Assembly: GCA_041082215.1 (NCBI GenBank)
Contig: JBDOIF010000049.1
Span: forward strand, 1-64,000
Source: Anaerolineae bacterium
GTDB lineage: Bacteria; Chloroflexota; Anaerolineae; B4-G1; DUEL01
Length of the DNA: 64,000 nucleotides
Reading direction: 5' to 3'
The notes beneath the pieces were generated by a model, which saw only the letters and a list, made by a program, of their open reading frames with translations, made no database searches and was not told the DNA's origin. The translations under genes were made by a program, and so were the position numbers. This document shows, in pieces, positions 32,933 through 42,688 of the stretch (positions within the stretch are counted from its first letter, which is position 1; every line of letters begins with the position of its first letter).

Positions 32933-33784
32933 TTATTCGTTTCCCACAATGCGCTCGTAGATGCTTTCCAGCTCCTCTTCGGAGTAGTAGTAGATGATCA
33001 ACCGTCCGCCCTTTTTTCCGGGGGCCAGGCGGACCCGGGTGCCGAGCGCCTCGCGCAGACGGTCTTCCACCGCCCGAACCTCCGGGGCCGGTTCTGGAGC
33101 TGCTGGGCGGGCCTGCCTGCCGCTGAGCAGCCGCTGCACCAGCTCCTCCGTCTGTCGCACGCTGAGCTGTCTTCGCAGGACCGTGCGCAGGGCAGCAGCC
33201 TGGAGTTCAGGGGATTCCAGGGAAAGGAGTGCCCGCGCGTGCCCCTGGGAGATCTTCCCGTTCAGGAGCGCTTCCTTCACCGGCTCCGCAGCCTTCAGCA
33301 GGCGGAGGGTGTTGGTGATCGCCACCCGGCTTTTCCCCACCCTCCGGGCCACCTCCTCGTGGGTCAGCCCGAACCCCTCGATCAACTGCTGGTAGGCCGC
33401 CGCCTCCTCCAGCGGGTTCAGGTCCTCCCGCTGGAGGTTCTCCACCAGCGCCAGCTCCAGCATCTCGTGGGGCGCCACGTCCTTGACGATCACCGGCACG
33501 GTCGGGAGGCCGGCCAGCCGGGCGGCCCGCCAGCGTCGCTCTCCGGCGATCAGCCGATATCCATCCCCCTCCCGCGCCACGATCAACGGCTGAATCACAC
33601 CGTGGGCCTGGATGGAAGCCGCCAGTTCCACCAGGTCCTGATCCCGGATCGCCGAGCGGGGCTGGTGGGGGTTGGGGCGGATCGCCGTCAGCTCCACCTC
33701 CAGCACGCCAGCAGCCTCCCTCTCCCCCTCTACGGGGATCAGTGCCTCCAGCCCCTTCCCCAGACCGATCTTACGGGGTGGCAT
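32933..33784 (-). CDS. parB: ParB/Spo0J chromosome partitioning protein
   Basis: [37 protein letters not shown]. Confidence 0.96.
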
Positions 33785-34628
33785 ATTTCCCCTCCACCTG
33801 CGACGGACCCGCCGATTCCGGCGGCTGCCCGGCACTCTCGACGAACAGCCGCTCGACCGGCCGCCCATCCCCTGCCAGAAGCTCACGGGCCAGCGCCTGG
33901 TAGGCCAGCGCTCCCGGCGATCCGGGGGCATAGCTCAGGATCGGCTCCCCATAGCTGGGCGCCTCGCTCAGCCGCACACTGCGCGGAACAATCGTGTGGA
34001 AGACCCGGTCGCCGAAATGGCGCTGCACCTCCTGGACGACCTGCCGGGCCAGGTTGGTGCGGGGATCGAACATCGTCAGTACCAGCCCCCGCACCCGCAG
34101 TCCCGGGTTCAGCGCCCGACGGACCAGCTCGATGGTTCGGATCAGTTGGGAAAGCCCCTCCAGCGCCAGATACTCGCACTGGACAGGGATGATGACTCCA
34201 TCCTGGGCAGCAGTAAGGGCGTTGATGGTGAGGATGCCCAGGCTGGGGGGACAATCAATCAACACGTAGTCGTACTGGGAGACCACCGGCTCCAGCGCCT
34301 GCTGAAGCCGTCGCTCCCGCGCCAGCATTCCCACCAGCTCCACCGTCGCACCGGCCAGTTGCGCCGAACTGGGCACCAGGTCCAGCCGGACCCGGTTGGT
34401 GAGCCGGATAATCTGCTGCAGGGGGACCTCCCGGACCAGTGCGTCGTAGATCGAAGCGGCCAGCTCCTTCCGCTCCACCCCCAGGCTGGCGGTGGCATTG
34501 GCCTGGGGGTCAATATCCACCAGCAGCACCCGCTGGCCCCAGTGGGCCAGATAGGCGGCCAGGTTGACGGCGGTCGTGGTCTTTCCGACGCCCCCTTTCT
34601 GGTTGGCGAACGCATAGATGGTCGGCAT
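33771..34628 (-). CDS. parA: ParA/Soj ATPase
   Basis: NQKGGVGKTT, DIDPQANAT, IDCPPSLG, PVQCEYLALEG. Confidence 0.96.
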   Translation of the reverse strand: MPTIYAFANQKGGVGKTTTAVNLAAYLAHWGQRVLLVDIDPQANATASLGVERKELAASIYDALVREVPLQQIIRLTNRVRLDLVPSSAQLAGATVELVGMLARERRLQQALEPVVSQYDYVLIDCPPSLGILTINALTAAQDGVIIPVQCEYLALEGLSQLIRTIELVRRALNPGLRVRGLVLTMFDPRTNLARQVVQEVQRHFGDRVFHTIVPRSVRLSEAPSYGEPILSYAPGSPGALAYQALARELLAGDGRPVERLFVESAGQPPESAGPSQVEGKYATP

Positions 34629-34630
34629 CG

Positions 34631-35479
34631 TCACACCTGCGCACACACTGCCTGGCAGTGGGCGATCTCCTCCGCCGTCGGCGTGCCGGAAAGCCCCACC
34701 CGCGTGACAGAGACAGCCGCCACGCAGTTGGCCACCCGGGCCGCCATCTGGGGGGAAGCGCCACGCCGAAGCTCGACGAAGAAGACGGCCGCGAAGACAT
34801 CCCCCGCCCCGGTCGCGTCCACCTCCACCGCCGGAAAGGCGGGGAGGTCCTCCCGCGCCCCCTTCACGTAGAGCGTACAGCCAGCCGCCCCTCGGGTGAG
34901 GACAAGCAGAGGGACCTGCCGGGCCCATCGAGCGACTCGCTCCTCATCCCCGGCCACGTCTTCCTCGCTGAGGACAATGGCGCTGGCGCGGGGGAGGAGG
35001 ATGTCGGCCCCTTCCCACGGCCCGGGCCGCACCTGACCGCTTCCATCCCACCACCGCATCCACCCCTGGGGTGTCAATCCCAGGAATGAACCCGGAAATG
35101 CCCTGGCCAGCGCCGGATCGCATTCCCGCGCCACCGGTCCCAGGTGGATCACGTCGGCCGTCCGCCAGGCGGGAGGGACCATATCGGGGGTCAGCCGGGC
35201 GGCGACTCCCTCCACCGTCTGCAACCGCCCTGTGGCCGTGTACCGGTTTTGGAAGGTCGTCGTTGTCGGTGCCGGCACCCGCAGGACCTCGATGCCGGGC
35301 AGGGCCTCGCTCAGGTCCACCGATGGATCGGCGCTGGTGACCACCCGCACCTGGCACCCCAGCGCCCGGGCGGTGCGGGCAGCGTAGGCGACGGTCCCCC
35401 CCACCCTGAACCGGCCGTCCGGGGTGCGGTCCCGCGTGACGTGGCCAACCACCAGATAGTTCAGGAGAGGTGTGCTCAC
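34631..35479 (-). CDS. PfkB family carbohydrate kinase
   Basis: GGTVAYA, LTRGAAG, VDATGAGDVFAA. Confidence 0.9.
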   Translation of the reverse strand: MSTPLLNYLVVGHVTRDRTPDGRFRVGGTVAYAARTARALGCQVRVVTSADPSVDLSEALPGIEVLRVPAPTTTTFQNRYTATGRLQTVEGVAARLTPDMVPPAWRTADVIHLGPVARECDPALARAFPGSFLGLTPQGWMRWWDGSGQVRPGPWEGADILLPRASAIVLSEEDVAGDEERVARWARQVPLLVLTRGAAGCTLYVKGAREDLPAFPAVEVDATGAGDVFAAVFFVELRRGASPQMAARVANCVAAVSVTRVGLSGTPTAEEIAHCQAVCAQV

Positions 35480-36207
35480 CCCCGTTCCCGCTGCGACTGA
35501 GGAATGATGGTCACTCGACGACGGCGTCCCTCCCCCACGCTCTCGGTGCGAACGTCGGCGCGCTCCCGCAGCGCCAGATGGACGATCCGCCGCTCGTAGG
35601 GCGGCATCGGCTCAAGGGCAACTGCCCGCCCGTCCCTGACCGCCTTCTCGGCCATCCGTTCGGCCAGACGGCGCAGAGTCCGCTCCTGCCGCTGCTTGAA
35701 TCCGTCCACATCCACAATCAGATTGGCCTCATGCGCCAGATAGCGCCCGACAATGAGGCGCACGATCCGCTGCAGGGCTGCCAGCGTCTCCCCTTTGGGG
35801 CCGATCAGGACCTCCACCCCCGGTCCGCGCACGTCGAGAATGAGGGGCTGTTCTTCGCCAGCAGCCGGCTCTGCCCATCTCAGATGAACCTCGGCGGCGG
35901 GAAACTCCATCCGCTCCAGAAGTTCCTTCAGGACCCTGCGGGCCGATTCCGCCAGCTCCTCGGCCCCTGCAGCCTCCGCCGTTTCCACCCCGGCCGCAGC
36001 CGCAGCCTCCGTCGCGGTAGGGGTTGGGGGAGCGACCGGGATGAGGCGGACGGAGGCCGGACGGGCACCGATCCCCAGGATCCCCCGGCTTCCCTCGTCG
36101 AGCACCTCCACTCTGACCTGATCGCGGGCCAGCCCCAGCGCCGCCAGTCCGACAGCGACAGCCTCCTCCACATCCTCGCCGGAGAAGACCAGGCTCTCTT
36201 CGCTCAT
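35476..36207 (-). CDS. jag: Jag/KhpB RNA-binding protein
   Basis: Jag_N (VEEAV..GL..LG...GSRGILGIG), KH LIGPKGETL, R3H ERRIVH. Confidence 0.93.
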   Translation of the reverse strand: MSEESLVFSGEDVEEAVAVGLAALGLARDQVRVEVLDEGSRGILGIGARPASVRLIPVAPPTPTATEAAAAAGVETAEAAGAEELAESARRVLKELLERMEFPAAEVHLRWAEPAAGEEQPLILDVRGPGVEVLIGPKGETLAALQRIVRLIVGRYLAHEANLIVDVDGFKQRQERTLRRLAERMAEKAVRDGRAVALEPMPPYERRIVHLALRERADVRTESVGEGRRRRVTIIPQSQRERG

Positions 36208-36219
36208 GGCCCACACCCC

Positions 36220-36939
36220 CTATTTTTTGGCTTCCCGCCCCGCACTCCCTCGTCGGGTCAGGAAATACTGGAGGATCGTGACCAGGTTGGAGATGATGAA
36301 ATAGATAGAGAGTCCGGAGGCATAGGAGATGGAGATAAAGCCGAACATCAACGGCATCATAATCTGCATCTGCTGGTTCATCGCCGCGGACCGCTCGTCG
36401 GTGGAGGGGGGGGTCAGGATTTTCTGGGAGAGCCAGGAGGTGACCACGACCAGGATCGGCAGGACGAAATACGGGTCTGGCTGCCCCAGGTCCAGCCACA
36501 GAAAGCGGCTCTGCAGAGGGATGAGGCCGACGATGCCGGGAATGAAGGTATAGATGTTCTGGGAGAGCTTCAGGAGTTCCAGCGGGTTCACCGCCAGCAC
36601 CCGGATGATCGCCTGCCAGAGACCGTAGAGGAGGGGGAGCTGGATCAGCAGGGGCAGACATCCCCCCAGTGGATTGATGCCCGCCTTCTGGTAGAGCTTC
36701 ATCTGTTCCTGGGCGAGCTTTTCCCGGTCGTTGGCGTATTTCTTCTGGAGCTTCTGTAGCTCCGGCTGCAACTCCTGCATCCGCTGGGCCGCCTGTTGCT
36801 GCTTGAGGGTGAGCGGGAGAACAGCCAGCCGCACCACGAGGGTGAGGCCGGCGATCGCTATAATTGTCTGCTGCCCCAGGAAACGGTAGAAGAGCAGCAT
36901 CAAATTGACCATCGGACTAAGGACGATCAGGTCCCACAC
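36220..36939 (-). CDS. yidC: YidC/Oxa1 membrane protein insertase (short form, no P1 domain)
   Basis: MQELQPEL..LQKKY, GINPLGGCLPLLIQLP, FLWLDL..PDP; GTG start inferred. Confidence 0.93.
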   Translation of the reverse strand: MWDLIVLSPMVNLMLLFYRFLGQQTIIAIAGLTLVVRLAVLPLTLKQQQAAQRMQELQPELQKLQKKYANDREKLAQEQMKLYQKAGINPLGGCLPLLIQLPLLYGLWQAIIRVLAVNPLELLKLSQNIYTFIPGIVGLIPLQSRFLWLDLGQPDPYFVLPILVVVTSWLSQKILTPPSTDERSAAMNQQMQIMMPLMFGFISISYASGLSIYFIISNLVTILQYFLTRRGSAGREAKK

Positions 36940-36950
36940 AGAACCACCCC

Positions 36951-38294
36951 CTACTGCCCCGCCTGTGCTGGGGGATAGACCCACAGCGAGCGGCCGTTGT
37001 CCATATAGAAAGCCTGAACCCGCGCGTCGGTGTAGATGCGGGAGACATAAGCGACCTCCCCATCGGCGACCAGCGAAGCCGACCGGCCGCTCCCCGGCTG
37101 GGACCAGATGATGAAGCCGTCGGCGGGGTCGAGGCCGTAGAGTCCTCCCCTGTCCCCGGCGACCACCAGTGTCTCCCCATCCCCGCTTATCACCGGTGCC
37201 AGATGGATGGTCTCATCCACCCTGCTCCGCCACAACTCCCGCCCCGTCGCCAGGTCCAGCGCATAGACGTTCCCGTCCACATCGGCTGCATAGATGGCGA
37301 CTCCGTCGGTTGCCGGGGAGCCCCAGAACCAGTTTTCCCCCTCAAACTGCCACACCCGGGTCCCGTCCTCCTGCCGCAGCGCATACAGCGTATGGTCGAA
37401 CGCACCCACGTAGAGCATCTCCCCTGCCGCAAGCGGCGGGCCGGCCAGCGCCCCCCCTGCTTCGAACCGCCACCGCTCCCGCCCCGTCGCCAGGTCCAGC
37501 GCATACAGCCTGTGATCCAGCGAAGCGACATAGACGGTATCGGAGAGGACGAGGGGAGTGGCCCAGACGCGGCCCCCGGTGGCGAAGGGCCGAGGCCAGG
37601 CTGGCGAACCGTCTTCCACACGGAAGGCGTACACATTGCCGTCACTGTTGCCGATGACCAGGACCCCCTCGCCCACCGCCCCCGGCGCGACGAACTCCCC
37701 GCCCGCTTCCCCAAACGACCACAGCTCCTGCCCATCCTCGATGCTCAGAGCACGGAGCATCCCGCGGGAGCGGGCAAACAGCCCCCCACCCCTCCGTTCA
37801 TAGGAGGTAGCGAACAGCACCTCGTGGTCCAGCAGGGAGACGGTGTAAAAGGGGCCGTACTGGCGCAGGTTGGGCTCCGCCGGGAAGGCCCAAAGCTCCT
37901 TTCCCGTCTCAGCGTCCAGCGCACGGACCTGCTCCAGGTCTGCCACGTAGACGACCCCCTCACTGACGACGAGTGTGGTCCAGCTCGTGGGGTTGGTTCC
38001 GCCGCCACAACCGGCGGCGGATGTCGCAAATAGCAGGGCCAGCAGGAGCAGCAGGCGATACAGGCCCTTATCCTGTGGCTCGAGATCGGGCACGGGGTCG
38101 TACCCGCCGGGGTGGAAGGGGTGGCATCGGCCAAGCCGTTTGACGGCCAACCAGCCCCCTCGCAGCAATCCATAACGGGCGATCGCCTGATAGCCGTACT
38201 CGGAACAGGAGGGGTAGAAACGGCAGGTAGGAGGCAGCACCCGAGAAAAGGTCCGCTGCCAGAGGCGGATCAGAAACAGCGCGAGATACTTCAT
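36951..38294 (-). CDS. yidD: YidD fused in frame to a lipobox-like segment and a PQQ-like (BamB-type) beta-propeller
   Basis: [10 protein letters not shown]...[14 protein letters not shown] continues without a stop into [16 protein letters not shown] and repeated YALD..TG.E.W blades. Confidence 0.88.
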
Positions 38295-38653
38295 TCCTGT
38301 TCGCCTTTCTGTGTTGTCAGGCCAGCCCGTTGGACCAGCGAGGCCATCGCTTCCCGCACCTGAGGCTCTTTGACCTGGAGGATCTCCGGCCTGGCGACCA
38401 GCAGGAGGTCCCATCCAGGCTGAAGCCCGGGATGGAGGTGACGGGCCGCCTCACGCAGAAGCCGTTTAGCCCGGTTGCGGGTTACGGCTCTGCCCAGCCG
38501 GCGGCTGGCGGTGATTCCCACCCGGGTGGTATTCAGCCCGTTGGGGCGGGCGACGAGGACGAAGAGGGGATGGGACCAGGATCGGCCCTCCTGCCGCAGC
38601 CGGGCGAAATCGGCCGATCTTCTGAGCCGAAGGCGTCGCTCCATCCCCTCCAT
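38291..38653 (-). CDS. rnpA: Ribonuclease P protein component
   Basis: [33 protein letters not shown]. Confidence 0.95.
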
Positions 38654-38656
38654 CCG

Positions 38657-38857
38657 CTAAGCCCCCCGCCGGGGCCGTTGTGCGCTCTCCTTCCAGTTCC
38701 ACTTTTTGGCCCATTCCCGGTGCACGGTCAGATGGTGGCGGCCCTTTAGCCTTCGTGCCTTCAACACCCGGCGGCCGGTTGAGGTCGCCATCCGTGCCCG
38801 GAAACCGTGGGTCCGCATTCGTTTCCGTTTCCTGGGCTGGTAGGTCTGTTTGGGCAT
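38657..38857 (-). CDS. rpmH: 50S ribosomal protein L34 (with C-terminal extension)
   Basis: [31 protein letters not shown]. Confidence 0.96.
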
Positions 38858-38949: not shown

Positions 38950-41418
38950 TTAGGAAGGTGTAGGACAAGCTAAAGCTTGTCCTACATTCATCTTATGCAA
39001 CCTGATCTCCCCGTCCTCGACGTCCACCCACACCGTGTCGCCCGGTGCGAAGCGGCCTGCCAGCACGGCGTCGGAGAGGAGGTCCTCCACACGGTTCTGG
39101 ATCACCCGGCGCAGGGGGCGGGCCCCGTATTCCGGCGAATACCCTTCCCGGGCCAGCAATTCCCGCGCTGCCGGAGAGACCTCCAGCCTGAGGTCCTGCT
39201 CGGCGAGCCGCCCGGCCACCTTCGCCAGCTCCAGCTCCACAATCCGGGCGATCTGATCCGGCCCCAGCGGGCGGAAGACGACCACCGCATCCAGCCGGTT
39301 GAGAAACTCCGGGCGGAAGGTCCGCTTCAGCTCCTCCCGGAGTCGCTGGCTCATCTCTTTATACTCCTGTTCCGCCTCCTGCGCCTGATCGGAGGGGAGG
39401 GCAAACCCCAGACCACCCCGCCGGATCGTCTCGGCGCCGATGTTGGAGGTCATGATCACAATTGTATTGCGGAAGTCCACCCGTCGCCCGCGTGCGTCGG
39501 AGAGGTTGCCTTCCTCCATGATCTGGAGCAGGATATTGAAGACCTCGGGGTGGGCCTTCTCCACCTCGTCGAAGACGACGATGGAAAAGGGGCGGCGGCG
39601 AACCGCTTCGGTAAGCTGCCCCGCGTCCTCATACCCCACATAGCCCGGCGGCGCACCGACCAGGCGGGCGGTGGTGTGTCGTTCCATGAACTCCGACATA
39701 TCGAGCTGGATCAGGGCATCCTCGCTGCCGAAAAGGAAGGCAGCCAGCGCTTTGGTCAGCTCTGTCTTTCCCACGCCCGTGGGGCCGAGGAAAATGAAGG
39801 AGCCGATTGGGCGGCGGGGGTCCTTTAACCCTGCCCGGGCCCGTCGGATCGCCCGCGCGATGATCTCGATCGCCTCATCCTGCCCCACGATCCGTTTCCG
39901 GAGCTCATCTTCTATGTGCAAAAGCCGCTCGGTCTCCTCCGTTGCCAGCTGGGCCAGAGGGATCCCCGTCCACATCGAGACCACCTCGGCCACATCCTGG
40001 GGTCCCACAGTGGCGCTCTCCCCCTGGTCCCACGCCGCTCGCAGCGCCTCGATCTCTCTTTCCAGCTCCTGCAGCCGCTCCCGCAGCTTCCGGGCTTCCC
40101 CGAACCGCTCCTCCCGCACCATCTCGTTGACCTGTCGCTCCAGTTCACGCCGCTCGGCGTGCTTTTCCCGCAGTCGGAGCGCCTCAGGCGCTTTGTACAT
40201 CCGCACGCGGGAGGCGGCTTCGTCAATCAGGTCAATCGCCTTATCCGGCAGGTACCGGTCGGAGATATAGCGGGCGGAGAGGCGGGCGGCTGCCACCAGC
40301 GCCTCGTCGGCGATACGCAGCCGGTGGTGCTCCTCGTAGAGGGGGGCCAATCCGCGCAGGATCTCGACCGTCTGTTCGACCGTAGGCTCTTCGATGACGA
40401 TGGGCTGGAACCTCCGCTCCAGCGCGGCGTCGGACTCGATGTGGCGGCGGTATTCGTCGAGGGTGGTGGCGCCGATGCACTGGAGTTCCCCTCGCGCGAG
40501 GGCTGGCTTGAGGATGTTGGCCGCATCCACTGAGGAGCCGGCCGCGCCAGCCCCTACCAGCATATGCATCTCGTCTATGAAGAGGATGGACTCGCTCTGT
40601 TTCAGCTCATCCAGGACCTTTTTCAGCCGCTCCTCAAACTGCCCCCGGTACATTGTGCCGGCCACAAGCGACCCCACGTCGAGCTGGAGGACACGCTTCC
40701 CCAGGAGGACCGAGGGGGCATCGCCCGCCACGATCCGCTGGGCCAGCCCTTCCACAATGGCGGTCTTTCCCACCCCTGGCTCGCCGATCAGCGCCGGGTT
40801 GTTTTTGGTCCGGCGGGCCAGTATCTGGATGACCCGCTCGATCTCCGTCTCCCGGCCGATGACGGGGTCCAGCTTTCCCTCTCCGGCCAGCGCGGTCAGG
40901 TCCACGGCCAGCCGATCCACCAGCGGAGTACGGTGGGAGCGGCGGAGGGGCTGAGGCCGGTCCACAGTAACAGGCCGCCCTTCCAGCGAGCGGGCGGCTT
41001 CGCTGCGGAGCAGTTCGATGTTGATCCCCAGATACCGCAGGATGTCGGCGGCCATGCCCCTCTGCTCACGGGCCAGGGCGATCAGGATATGCTCGGTATC
41101 CACCTTGGGGTCGCCCCGCTGGCGGGCCTCGTCCACCGCCAGTTGGATAACCCGTTTGGTGCTCTCGGTGAGCACCGGGCGGGCCGCGCCGGGCAGCCGC
41201 TCCTCGGCGTTGATGCGGAGGATGAACTGCCGCACCTGCTCCTCATCCAGCCCCAGGCGACGAAGGACCCTGGCGGCCCCGCCCTCTCCCGTCTGGATCA
41301 GCGCCAGCAGCAGATGTTCGGTCCCGATGTGCAGATGGCGCATCTGGCGGGCCGCCTCCTCCGCCATCCGCAGGGCCTTTCCGGCCTCCGGGGTAAATCG
41401 CTCCCAGTTACTTTCCAT
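38950..41418 (-). CDS. clpC: ATP-dependent Clp protease ATP-binding subunit ClpC
   Basis: Double Clp_[12 protein letters not shown]-like coiled coil, [15 protein letters not shown]. Confidence 0.95.
38959..38986. repeat. Perfect 13-2-13 palindrome TGTAGGACAAGCT-AA-AGCTTGTCCTACA (REP-like) inside the clpC 3' end
   Basis: Direct reading; same arms at 8150 and 8349. Confidence 0.85.
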
Positions 41419-41449
41419 ATCCTACCATTCCCAGCGCCCCATAGAGTTG

Positions 41450-42688
41450 CTACTCCTGGAGCAGCCCGCTCAGCGCCGAAGCCGCCGGCCCATCGGACAC
41501 CAGTCGTTGTGTCACGGTCCGTTCGGCATGCCAATCCTCGACGGCCTCCTCCCCACCGGCCTGCTTCAAACTGAGCGCCAGCCGATGCCGTTCCGGCTCC
41601 ACCCGTACCACGCGCAACGTGACCACCTGCCCCGGCTGCACGACCTCCTTCGGGTGTGCCACATGGCCATCGTTCAGCTCAGAGACGTGGATCAGCCCCT
41701 CAATGGCCTCATCTCCCACAATACAGGCGAAAGCCCCCCACTTGGCAAGCCGGGTGATCCGTCCTTCTACCAGTTGCCCCACCTGGTATCGCTCCCCCAC
41801 CGTCGTCCAGGGGTCCGGCTCCAGGCGCTTCATGCTCAGCGCGACCCGGCGCCGTTCCCGGTCCAGGCTGAGGACGACGACCTCCACCTCCTGCCCGACC
41901 TGCAGCACCTCGCTGGGGTGATCCACCCGCCTCCAGGAGATCTCGGAGAGATGGACCAGCCCGTCCACGCCGTCCAGGTCAATAAAGGCGCCGAAGTCAA
42001 CCAGATTGCTGACCCGCCCCCGGACCACCTCCCCCTCTCGCAGGGAATCCAGCCGTTCTGCCTGTTGCGATTCCTTATCCCGAGTCTCGGCTGCCCGTTC
42101 GGAGAGGATCAACCGATTGCGCTCCGGGTCCGCCTCGATGATCCGCAGTTGCAGCCGATCGCCCACCATCTGGGTCAGCACCCTGGCACAGGCAGGGTCG
42201 GACATGCGGGGGATGGAGCGGGAGCGGGAGAGCTGAGAGGCGGGCACAAAGCCCCGCAACCGCCCCAGATGGACGATCAACCCGCCCCGGTTGGCTGAAA
42301 CCACCTCCAGTTCGACGATCTCCTTTTTCTCCAGCAGGGAGTGGGCCAGTTCCCAATCCGCCGCCGACTGCGCCCGGGCCAGGGAAAGGACGATCTCACC
42401 GCATGGCCCCTCGGGGTTGACCACATAGACCATCACCCGGCTCCCCGGCTTCAGCCTGGCAAGCGTTTCTTCATCCAGCCGCTCCAACTCCCGGCCACTG
42501 ACCGTTCCCTCGCACTTGGCCCCCACGTCTATGATGATCGCTTCTGGGGATATACGGATCACCGTTCCCTGGACAATCTGCCCCCGTTCGAGACGGGTGT
42601 CGGGTAAATACTCTTCCAGGAGCTGCGCCAGCGAATCGGCCTCCGTTGCATGGTGTGGGGCGGACACCTGGTACGGGTCGTCGTTCAT
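41450..42688 (-). CDS. rpsA: 30S ribosomal protein S1 / S1-domain protein (4 S1 domains)
   Basis: ANRGGL..GFVPASQL, DFGAFIDL.GVDGLVHLSEISW, EGLIHVSEL. Confidence 0.88.
   Translation of the reverse strand: MNDDPYQVSAPHHATEADSLAQLLEEYLPDTRLERGQIVQGTVIRISPEAIIIDVGAKCEGTVSGRELERLDEETLARLKPGSRVMVYVVNPEGPCGEIVLSLARAQSAADWELAHSLLEKKEIVELEVVSANRGGLIVHLGRLRGFVPASQLSRSRSIPRMSDPACARVLTQMVGDRLQLRIIEADPERNRLILSERAAETRDKESQQAERLDSLREGEVVRGRVSNLVDFGAFIDLDGVDGLVHLSEISWRRVDHPSEVLQVGQEVEVVVLSLDRERRRVALSMKRLEPDPWTTVGERYQVGQLVEGRITRLAKWGAFACIVGDEAIEGLIHVSELNDGHVAHPKEVVQPGQVVTLRVVRVEPERHRLALSLKQAGGEEAVEDWHAERTVTQRLVSDGPAASALSGLLQE

Follow-up and report, generated by a model that had tools for sequence, protein, structure and literature searches.

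What does a lipoprotein-like beta-propeller do between yidD and yidC, and what becomes of it once it is translated in one chain with YidD? The question is raised by a 64,000-nucleotide stretch of DNA from a hot-spring Anaerolineae bacterium of the phylum Chloroflexota (assembly GCA_041082215.1, contig JBDOIF010000049.1, positions 1 to 64,000; hereafter the window). A single reading frame on its minus strand (38294..36951) translates to 447 residues followed by a single terminal stop. The frame encodes, in this order, a YidD domain, a hydrophobic helix ending at the lipobox cysteine Cys96 and an eight-bladed PQQ/BamB-type propeller.

The YidD-propeller fusion is confirmed by this open frame and by a bridging contig from an independent study. 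Among the Chloroflexota loci compared, yidD, a propeller gene and yidC follow one another on one strand in all 119 of the 119 unique loci that contain all three genes. Together with a complex prediction that passes its controls, this order supports an extracytoplasmic partner of YidC, as a first-pass annotation of the window had proposed, and the modelled propeller is probably such a partner. The further suggestion of that annotation, that the propeller replaces the P1 domain of YidC, did not hold. The explanation favoured as a whole, to which we assign a probability of roughly 0.55, is that the propeller serves as an outer-face subunit of YidC and that the fused precursor is cut at Cys96.

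The fused reading frame

The fused frame belongs to a gene series on the minus strand that comprises rpmH, rnpA, the fused frame itself, yidC, and jag. Coordinates refer to the window, and profile scores are given with their cut-offs where these apply.

38657..38857, minus strand: rpmH (ribosomal protein L34), 66 amino acids with a C-terminal extension of about 20 amino acids; PF00468 74.8 bits over residues 3-45, TIGR01030 72 bits
38291..38653, minus strand: rnpA (RNase P protein component), 120 amino acids; PF00825 96 bits, TIGR00188 72.4 bits
36951..38294, minus strand: fused yidD-propeller frame, 447 codons plus stop; translation without internal stop, independent contig across the junction
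38091..38288, minus strand: YidD domain, residues 3-68; PF01809 99.1 bits (cut-off 27 bits), TIGR00278 84.5 bits (cut-off 40 bits)
38007..38090, minus strand: junction, residues 69-96; sequence, AlphaFold2 helix 77-94, conservation of Cys96
36954..38006, minus strand: eight-bladed PQQ/BamB-type beta-propeller, residues 97-447; PF13360 (PQQ_2) 156.1 bits (cut-off 27.6), AlphaFold2, Foldseek, VIA
36220..36939, minus strand: yidC, 239 amino acids from GTG 36939; PF02096 176.2 bits (cut-off 35 bits), TIGR03592 188.5 bits (cut-off 84.3 bits), both cut-offs passed
35476..36216, minus strand: jag/khpB (Jag_N, KH, R3H), last gene of the conserved cluster; NF041568 180.7 bits, PF01424 and PF14804

YidD keeps its position between rnpA and yidC, with the propeller inserted ahead of yidC, and the ATG of the fused gene overlaps the stop of rnpA. 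The PF01809 match spans model positions 2-67 of 67 and the YidD domain is thus complete; in a search of the same genome it is the only YidD match. What departs from the family is the length, since a small stand-alone protein of about 70-95 amino acids would be expected and the frame continues to 447 residues.

The junction contains a short charged linker with K76 and R80, the hydrophobic helix (77-94) and a lipobox-like A-A-G-C, so placed that 8 residues link YidD to the helix. The initial description of a YidD-lipobox-propeller fusion with no stop or ATG at the junction is borne out by the translation and the Pfam matches, and the sequence likewise places the Cys96 codon at 38007-38009, as first read. 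A scan of 38007..38090 found neither a stop nor a Shine-Dalgarno-like word, and ATG, GTG and TTG are likewise absent. The nearest in-frame canonical start is the GTG of Val68 (38091-38093), which lies within the YidD motif itself.

The propeller is well defined structurally. An AlphaFold2 model of the fused protein, built on 53 aligned relatives, reaches a mean predicted local distance difference test score (pLDDT) of 88.8 and places a helix at residues 77-94; blocks of ten residues from 111 to 440 score between 89 and 99. The YidD part is modelled poorly, with blocks of 47-77 over residues 1-70 and only 2 of the 53 alignment rows containing YidD, and nothing is concluded from it. Among natural structures, BamB chains come closest (Foldseek E about 1e-20, 21-23% identity), and VIA superimposes the propeller on 4imm_B with Z 35.4 and a root-mean-square deviation of 2.1 over 295 aligned residues. 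Eight invariant blade tryptophans in the alignment fit eight blades. Conservation of Cys96 across the 53 rows is at least 90%, and a crude lipobox pattern matches 112 of 127 unique propellers.

Despite the shared fold, the protein misses the BamB equivalog cut-offs (TIGR03300 184.1 against 285.2; NF008351 106.3 against 423). A search for Omp85/BamA (PF01103), which matched 7 of 14 control genomes, found no match in the window's genome, which is 96% complete, so that an absence there is no proof. Given this lack of an Omp85/BamA match, the propeller can hardly be BamB in function.

Conservation of the gene order in Chloroflexota

The association of the propeller gene with yidD and yidC extends well beyond the window's own family. 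Within its class, sampled at one genome per family, the adjacency occurs in at least 20 of 49 genomes from other families (E <= 1e-24). In a second class, characterized by small genomes, the propeller query matches 101 of 141 genomes at 1e-25. Of the non-matching genomes of this class, 20 were checked, and all 20 contain a propeller-profile match in the frame directly upstream of yidC (19 clear, one cut by a contig end). All 20 apparent absences are therefore false, which leaves no independent losses among them. Adjacency in both classes indicates that the propeller gene is, on the evidence of gene order, an old operon part in at least two classes and missing from other lineages. The latter point emerges from a phylum-wide sample of 46 of 48 matching genomes (G125, unpublished, and G122, with no yidD row, were left out): 12 of its 46 loci place a propeller behind yidD, 31 pass directly from yidD to yidC, and 3 have yidD alone.

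Irregular cases were also noted. At one locus (L023, G015:C56), tblastn finds no yidC in the 1.8 kb downstream of the propeller gene, the sole such case among loci uncut by contig ends. Long open frames at two second-class loci (L168 and L170) were considered as propeller-YidC fusions and rejected, being plain upstream or overlapping frames in GC-rich DNA.

Predicted complex of the propeller with YidC

Prediction of the complex, a check already named in the first-pass annotation, supports an interaction between the two proteins. YidC (30-row alignment) was paired with propeller residues 97-447 (53-row alignment), and the interaction prediction score from aligned errors (ipSAE) was 0.87 in three runs, compared with 0.23 for the best of three controls. 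In calibration, 116 of 157 solved complexes attained this mark, as did 2 of 215 mismatched pairs; these counts hold only roughly here, where our own alignments were used. The three runs share at least 93% of their contacts, and the pLDDT of the partner is 89. We know of no solved YidC-propeller complex that the model could have remembered.

The predicted interface occupies the outer side of the insertase. On YidC, contacts involve residues 116-127, 137-144, 154-156, and 201-205, which fall in the helix 2-3 loop and the helix 4-5 turn; both lie on the outer face in the five-helix topology, assigned from hydrophobic stretches, a cytoplasmic coiled region (46-90) and a basic tail. This is the side on which a lipoprotein has to reside. 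On the propeller, every blade contributes contacts on one face, among them W105, W244, A282, F299, D300, W322, and W324. Across 105 unique propellers from both classes, conservation is higher at the contact residues than at the remaining positions (0.632 vs 0.536, a value reached by 200 of 10000 random sets), and W105, W244, W322, and W324 are 96-100% conserved.

Conservation was also compared in the YidC loop. Both P119 and P141 are invariant in 119 unique YidCs that adjoin a propeller gene, where F146 and L151 reach 98% and 99% conservation; in 32 that have no propeller, the loop is for the most part missing or dissimilar. A loop pattern matches 97 of the 118 YidCs accompanied by a propeller, compared with 2 of the 33 that have none, although it misses many second-class members.

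Proposed mechanism and fate of the fused precursor

The favoured explanation can be laid out as a sequence of steps. In much of the sampled Chloroflexota, a lipid-anchored eight-bladed propeller is encoded between yidD and yidC, with its translation tightly coupled to that of yidD, and would act on the outer face of the YidC insertase as one of its subunits. The top face of the propeller, conserved and rich in tryptophan, would sit on the YidC loops that face away from the cytoplasm, and YidD would act at the cytoplasmic face of the same machine. E. coli YidD, in work ascribed to Yu and colleagues in 2011, is reportedly small, located at the cytoplasmic face of the membrane and beneficial to YidC-dependent insertion. 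In the lineage of the window, the yidD stop was lost together with the ribosome-binding site and start of the propeller gene, leaving the propeller as nothing but the C-terminal part of a YidD precursor.

On insertion of this precursor, YidD would stay inside and the propeller would come to lie outside, the former signal peptide now serving as a signal-anchor. Such an orientation should follow from K76 and R80, which stand ahead of the helix on the cytoplasmic side. Lgt would lipidate Cys96 and LspA would then cut before it, leaving a 95-residue YidD anchored in the membrane beside a mature lipoprotein of the usual kind; an uncut precursor would still hold all parts at one site. A meeting of the three products at one site, whether cut or uncut, would explain why loss of the stop is tolerated and why the fusion recurs. 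Topology, cleavage, and binding to YidC are what we infer here from sequence and models.

Processing by Lgt and Lsp, raised at the first pass as a route of release, is possible, both enzymes being encoded in the genome by one lgt (PF01790, 258.5 bits) and one lspA (PF01252, 133.4 bits). Their presence and the retention of the lipobox favour cleavage before Cys96, which we regard as slightly better than an even bet. The features of a lipoprotein are present only in part, as the hydrophobic stretch and lipobox cysteine are found and an N-terminal signal peptide is not, the cysteine standing at position 96 behind YidD.

Several observations weigh against the explanation as a whole. Judged by gene content, the propeller is not generally required by YidC, given that 31 of the 46 loci in the phylum sample do without it. 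The ipSAE score expresses the model's own confidence and supports binding only. Within YidC, conservation is no higher at the contact residues than elsewhere (0.604 vs 0.637), and the contrast between YidCs with and without a propeller extends to helices 3 to 5, so that the loop difference is confounded with descent. No propeller-YidC fusion was seen in the best 120 of 1529 long YidC relatives, a result that does not exclude one. Contigs from an RNA run (X8; 37877-38044 and 38327-38695) fail to bridge the junction, and that library may contain DNA. Finally, a lipobox 96 residues into the protein lies outside the lipoprotein rules, and its position -3 is occupied by Ala rather than Leu, Val or Ile.

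This last point bears on a possible outcome that we nonetheless hold to be less likely than cleavage, namely that the fused protein stays uncut. It would then be bitopic, with YidD inside, one helix and the propeller outside, and YidD would be permanently tied to the propeller and thereby to YidC. Besides the weak and distant lipobox, the short stretch of 8 residues from YidD to the helix would permit such an arrangement, and known YidD-YidC fusions indicate that YidD tolerates a permanent tether before an inward-starting helix. Yet Cys96 and the G-C dipeptide have been retained in a genome that holds lgt and lspA, and relatives with a relaxed position -3 (T-A-G-C in L003) are ordinary N-terminal lipoprotein precursors, all of which argues for processing.

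A second alternative, which we consider doubtful, dissociates the propeller from YidC. The protein would be a general envelope component, for instance a wall-synthesis scaffold or a sensor partner, that happens to reside in a strongly expressed old operon, and its fusion to YidD would be a neutral accident. PQQ-type propellers are indeed very common and have many partners (80963 library proteins match at E <= 0.001), each relative encodes further paralogues, gene neighbourhood alone is weak evidence, and the propeller-free loci of the phylum sample fit this alternative as well. It accounts less readily for a position between yidD and yidC that is fixed in every unique locus with all three genes, for a complex prediction that passes its controls with contacts on outer loops only, for the conservation of the contact face, and for the repeated fusion of the propeller gene with yidD.

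A coupled gene pair in relatives, with fusion as the exception

Comparison with relatives places the fused frame in context. All 40 loci were examined in relatives from three families and 22 further genera of the same order; those named are metagenome-assembled genomes labelled Thermoflexales, Thermoflexia, Anaerolineae or Anaerolineales. In 40 of 40, yidD lies directly beside the propeller orthologue and closes at its own stop after 69-94 amino acids, and the propeller gene begins with a separate start codon and encodes a signal peptide and a lipobox (e.g. L-S-G-C). In 12 of the 40, the propeller start (GTG or ATG) overlaps the yidD TGA as GTGA or ATGA. Among 13 relatives inspected, a Shine-Dalgarno word (AAGGAGA or GGAGGAGG) is found in the yidD tail, a few bases before the propeller start. 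The Shine-Dalgarno word in the yidD tail and the separate or overlapping propeller starts suggest that the two genes form a translationally coupled pair in these relatives.

The same organization dominates beyond the order. The 192 loci collected reduce to 163 unique ones, of which 126 carry both yidD and propeller genes; 123 of these keep two separate genes and three have one frame (the window, L067, and L069). Fusion is hence not typical of the group but a derived condition, specific to a lineage, of two coupled genes. At L067 and L069, CGC or CAA stands where relatives have TAA, and the Shine-Dalgarno word is retained together with a TTG start. Both are thus read-through fusions still able to make the propeller alone. 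In the window, by comparison, stop, Shine-Dalgarno word, and start have all been lost, and its fusion therefore looks obligate. It is the only such case seen, in which the propeller appears to be made only within YidD unless an unusual start is used.

Searches of protein collections returned few further examples. Among the best 120 relatives, a single protein (P0003, 456 amino acids, 64% identical) has YidD and a propeller fused, via a different junction. A search for YidD ends among proteins of 245-783 residues gave 19 matches, of which P0003 was again the sole YidD-propeller protein and nine were YidD-YidC fusions of about 508 amino acids. A library-wide search for further fusions was uninformative, as its best 150 rows were nearly all giant multi-propeller proteins and included three orthologues, none fused. 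Fusion of yidD with its downstream neighbour appears from these comparisons to be rare but recurrent.

If two proteins were still made in the window, the propeller would have to start internally, at the GTG of Val68 (38091-38093) or the CTG of Leu78 (38061-38063), with the long frame as minor read-through. The GTG is in frame and would yield a plausible lipoprotein signal with hydrophobic core and lipobox. We nevertheless regard this possibility as improbable. The junction has no Shine-Dalgarno-like word, whereas a strong one is found in all 13 relatives inspected, the same GTG is part of the conserved DPVP motif in relatives whose propeller starts further downstream, and in the absence of a yidD stop each ribosome that initiates at the yidD ATG must produce the fusion. 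The first-pass annotation had held that separate genes throughout the relatives together with an internal propeller start would overturn its reading of the fusion; the former is nearly the case, and the latter fails, since neither a Shine-Dalgarno word nor an ATG, GTG or TTG follows Val68.

Some observations concern individual relatives. The nine YidD-YidC fusions just mentioned (P0123-P0131) measure 506-509 amino acids, with YidD and the YidC core in one chain (PF01809 and PF02096), and other YidD fusions in the YidD-end search include an RnpA-YidD protein (P0139). One locus (L032, G031:C21) has about 800 bases between yidD and the propeller gene, compared with 0-140 in the other loci. The window's genome holds at least one paralogous PQQ-repeat protein, encoded by a 774-codon open frame (G000:C155:1650-2405) with 35-39% identity to the propeller blades, and PQQ-repeat proteins of 650-1000 amino acids are present in relatives as well.

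The junction in public sequencing runs

An index search identified 13 public runs that contain part of the stretch, hot-spring metagenomes among them. The junction was compared in four of these (X2, X5, X7, and the RNA run X8) by means of assembled contigs, in which rare variants may hide. In X2, which belongs to a study other than the likely source, a contig of 1859 bases spans 37476-38700 with three substitutions (37729, 38321, and 38324) and no gaps; all three fall outside the junction, which is identical. X5 is another sample of the source study, and its contig over 37616-38122 has zero differences. The segment 38040-38110, singled out for checking at the first pass, is crossed by the contigs of X2 and X5 without stop or indel, as contigs and not as raw reads.

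X7 comes from a third study and contains a strain about 94-95% identical, represented by two gap-free contigs (37618-38039 and 38054-38290) that leave 38040-38053 unbridged. Six differences listed in its YidD part were read by eye as four synonymous and two conservative (K52R and V51I) changes, a pattern that fits a gene under selection.

The fused junction is not private to this assembly. That the fusion reflects an assembly or sequencing error in a metagenome-assembled genome is very unlikely, since, although the genome was assembled in 174 contigs and the other runs contribute contigs from which rare variants drop out, a contig from another study crosses the region without gaps, one from another sample is identical, and the more distant X7 strain is gap-free in both of its segments.

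YidC and the envelope context

The gene that follows the fused frame encodes, as first annotated, a short YidC without P1. Its size and start are corrected here to 239 amino acids from GTG 36939, the more likely start because 30 aligned relatives begin with the same M/V-W-D residues. The protein is the only YidC match in the genome. It consists of the five-helix core, matching 60KD_IMP from residue 27, and both a P1 domain and a lipoprotein signal are lacking. The open frame ahead of the YidC core, compared across 177 loci of the phylum, has a median of 12 residues and exceeds 150 in four. Such short frames suggest that a P1-less YidC is ordinary in Chloroflexota.

The initial picture of a diderm that had lost P1 is not supported, given that no Omp85/BamA was found and that a P1-less YidC is the rule in the phylum. 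A passage of PMC8871954 describes Chloroflexi as having the outer-membrane gene pattern of monoderm Terrabacteria, with the envelope type still debated.

Among the long YidC relatives, many Anaerolineae proteins of about 420-510 amino acids (P0142-P0260) have extra domains (PF25549, PF01345/DUF11) beside the core. These extra domains represent a different way to enlarge a short YidC.

Neighbouring genes

The genes that flank the operon (window 32933-34928 and 38950-42688, minus strand) look ParB- and ParA-like on one side; on the other they appear to encode a ClpC-like AAA+ ATPase of 822 amino acids and a protein with S1-like repeats, all named by eye from translations. Ribosomal protein L34, encoded by the first gene of the series, has a basic extension here that continues about 20 residues past the 44-position Pfam model. 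An L34 of 58-68 amino acids with a C-terminal extension is found in 38 of 40 relatives' loci (L002-L041). The NWKES...RPRRR ending is kept in most of these, with four ending earlier, and the C-terminal extension is conserved in 39 loci of the order.

Wider reading and comparison with known systems

YidC/Oxa1 insertases are universal. In a limited full-text literature search, no dedicated outer-face protein partner of a single-membrane YidC was found, and nothing on a system of YidD with a propeller, or of YidD and YidC in Chloroflexi. A candidate for such an outer-face partner is the propeller lipoprotein, whose gene holds a fixed place between yidD and yidC in at least two classes. The window offers the clearest genetic link so far, as the propeller appears to be made only as part of YidD, and one gene whose product is split or not by LspA is a simple test object. 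If the product is cut, the internal lipobox would act as a natural cleavage site between two proteins.

A broader and distinctly tentative reading treats YidD, propeller, and YidC as a three-part insertase that spans both membrane faces in Chloroflexota, with the precursor of the window as a natural 'polyprotein' of two subunits split by signal peptidase II. YidD would hand substrates to YidC from inside, and the lipid-anchored propeller, its tryptophan-rich face docked on the outer loops of YidC, would receive or fold the translocated parts. Such an assembly would be a bacterial counterpart of EMC3-EMC1. In the endoplasmic reticulum (ER) membrane protein complex (EMC) of eukaryotes, EMC1 and EMC3 combine an Oxa1/YidC-superfamily core with a PQQ-like propeller on the non-cytoplasmic side. 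The Pfam family Beta-prop_EMC1_N (PF25293) is matched by 17 of 53 members of the propeller family (E <= 0.001, best 1.4e-10), the window's own protein not reaching that threshold. This similarity is of the general PQQ-propeller kind, and we treat it as an analogy, with no common descent shown.

Two other known propellers can be compared with that of the window. BamB (YfgL; PDB 3PRW, 4IMM) is likewise a PQQ-type propeller with eight blades and about 350 residues, preceded by a lipoprotein signal. BamB binds the POTRA domains of BamA, whereas the propeller gene of the window sits between yidD and yidC and its predicted partner is YidC, contacted via the top face. YxaL of Bacillus (PDB 7EQ5; VIA Z 32.0) is a PQQ-type propeller exported by a single-membrane bacterium, although it is not known to be encoded in the yidC operon.

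Comparison with other YidC proteins underlines where the additional module resides. The P1 domain of E. coli YidC is a beta-supersandwich inside the YidC chain, behind an extra first helix. Like the propeller, on its predicted side, it forms a large module on the non-cytoplasmic face of the insertase. In the window, however, the propeller is a protein of its own with an unrelated fold, and YidC itself has no P1. In Bacillota, according to a section of PMC13068155, YidC (SpoIIIJ/YqjG) is itself lipid-anchored; the YidC of the window has no lipobox, and the lipid anchor would instead be on the propeller.

On the YidD side, the domain is complete as in the E. coli protein of 85 amino acids, and in the window it stands behind rnpA as the only copy. 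The YidD-YidC fusions of about 508 amino acids likewise tie YidD to the insertase machinery. In the window, by contrast, YidD is joined to the propeller through a former lipoprotein signal peptide, and the product may be cut again.

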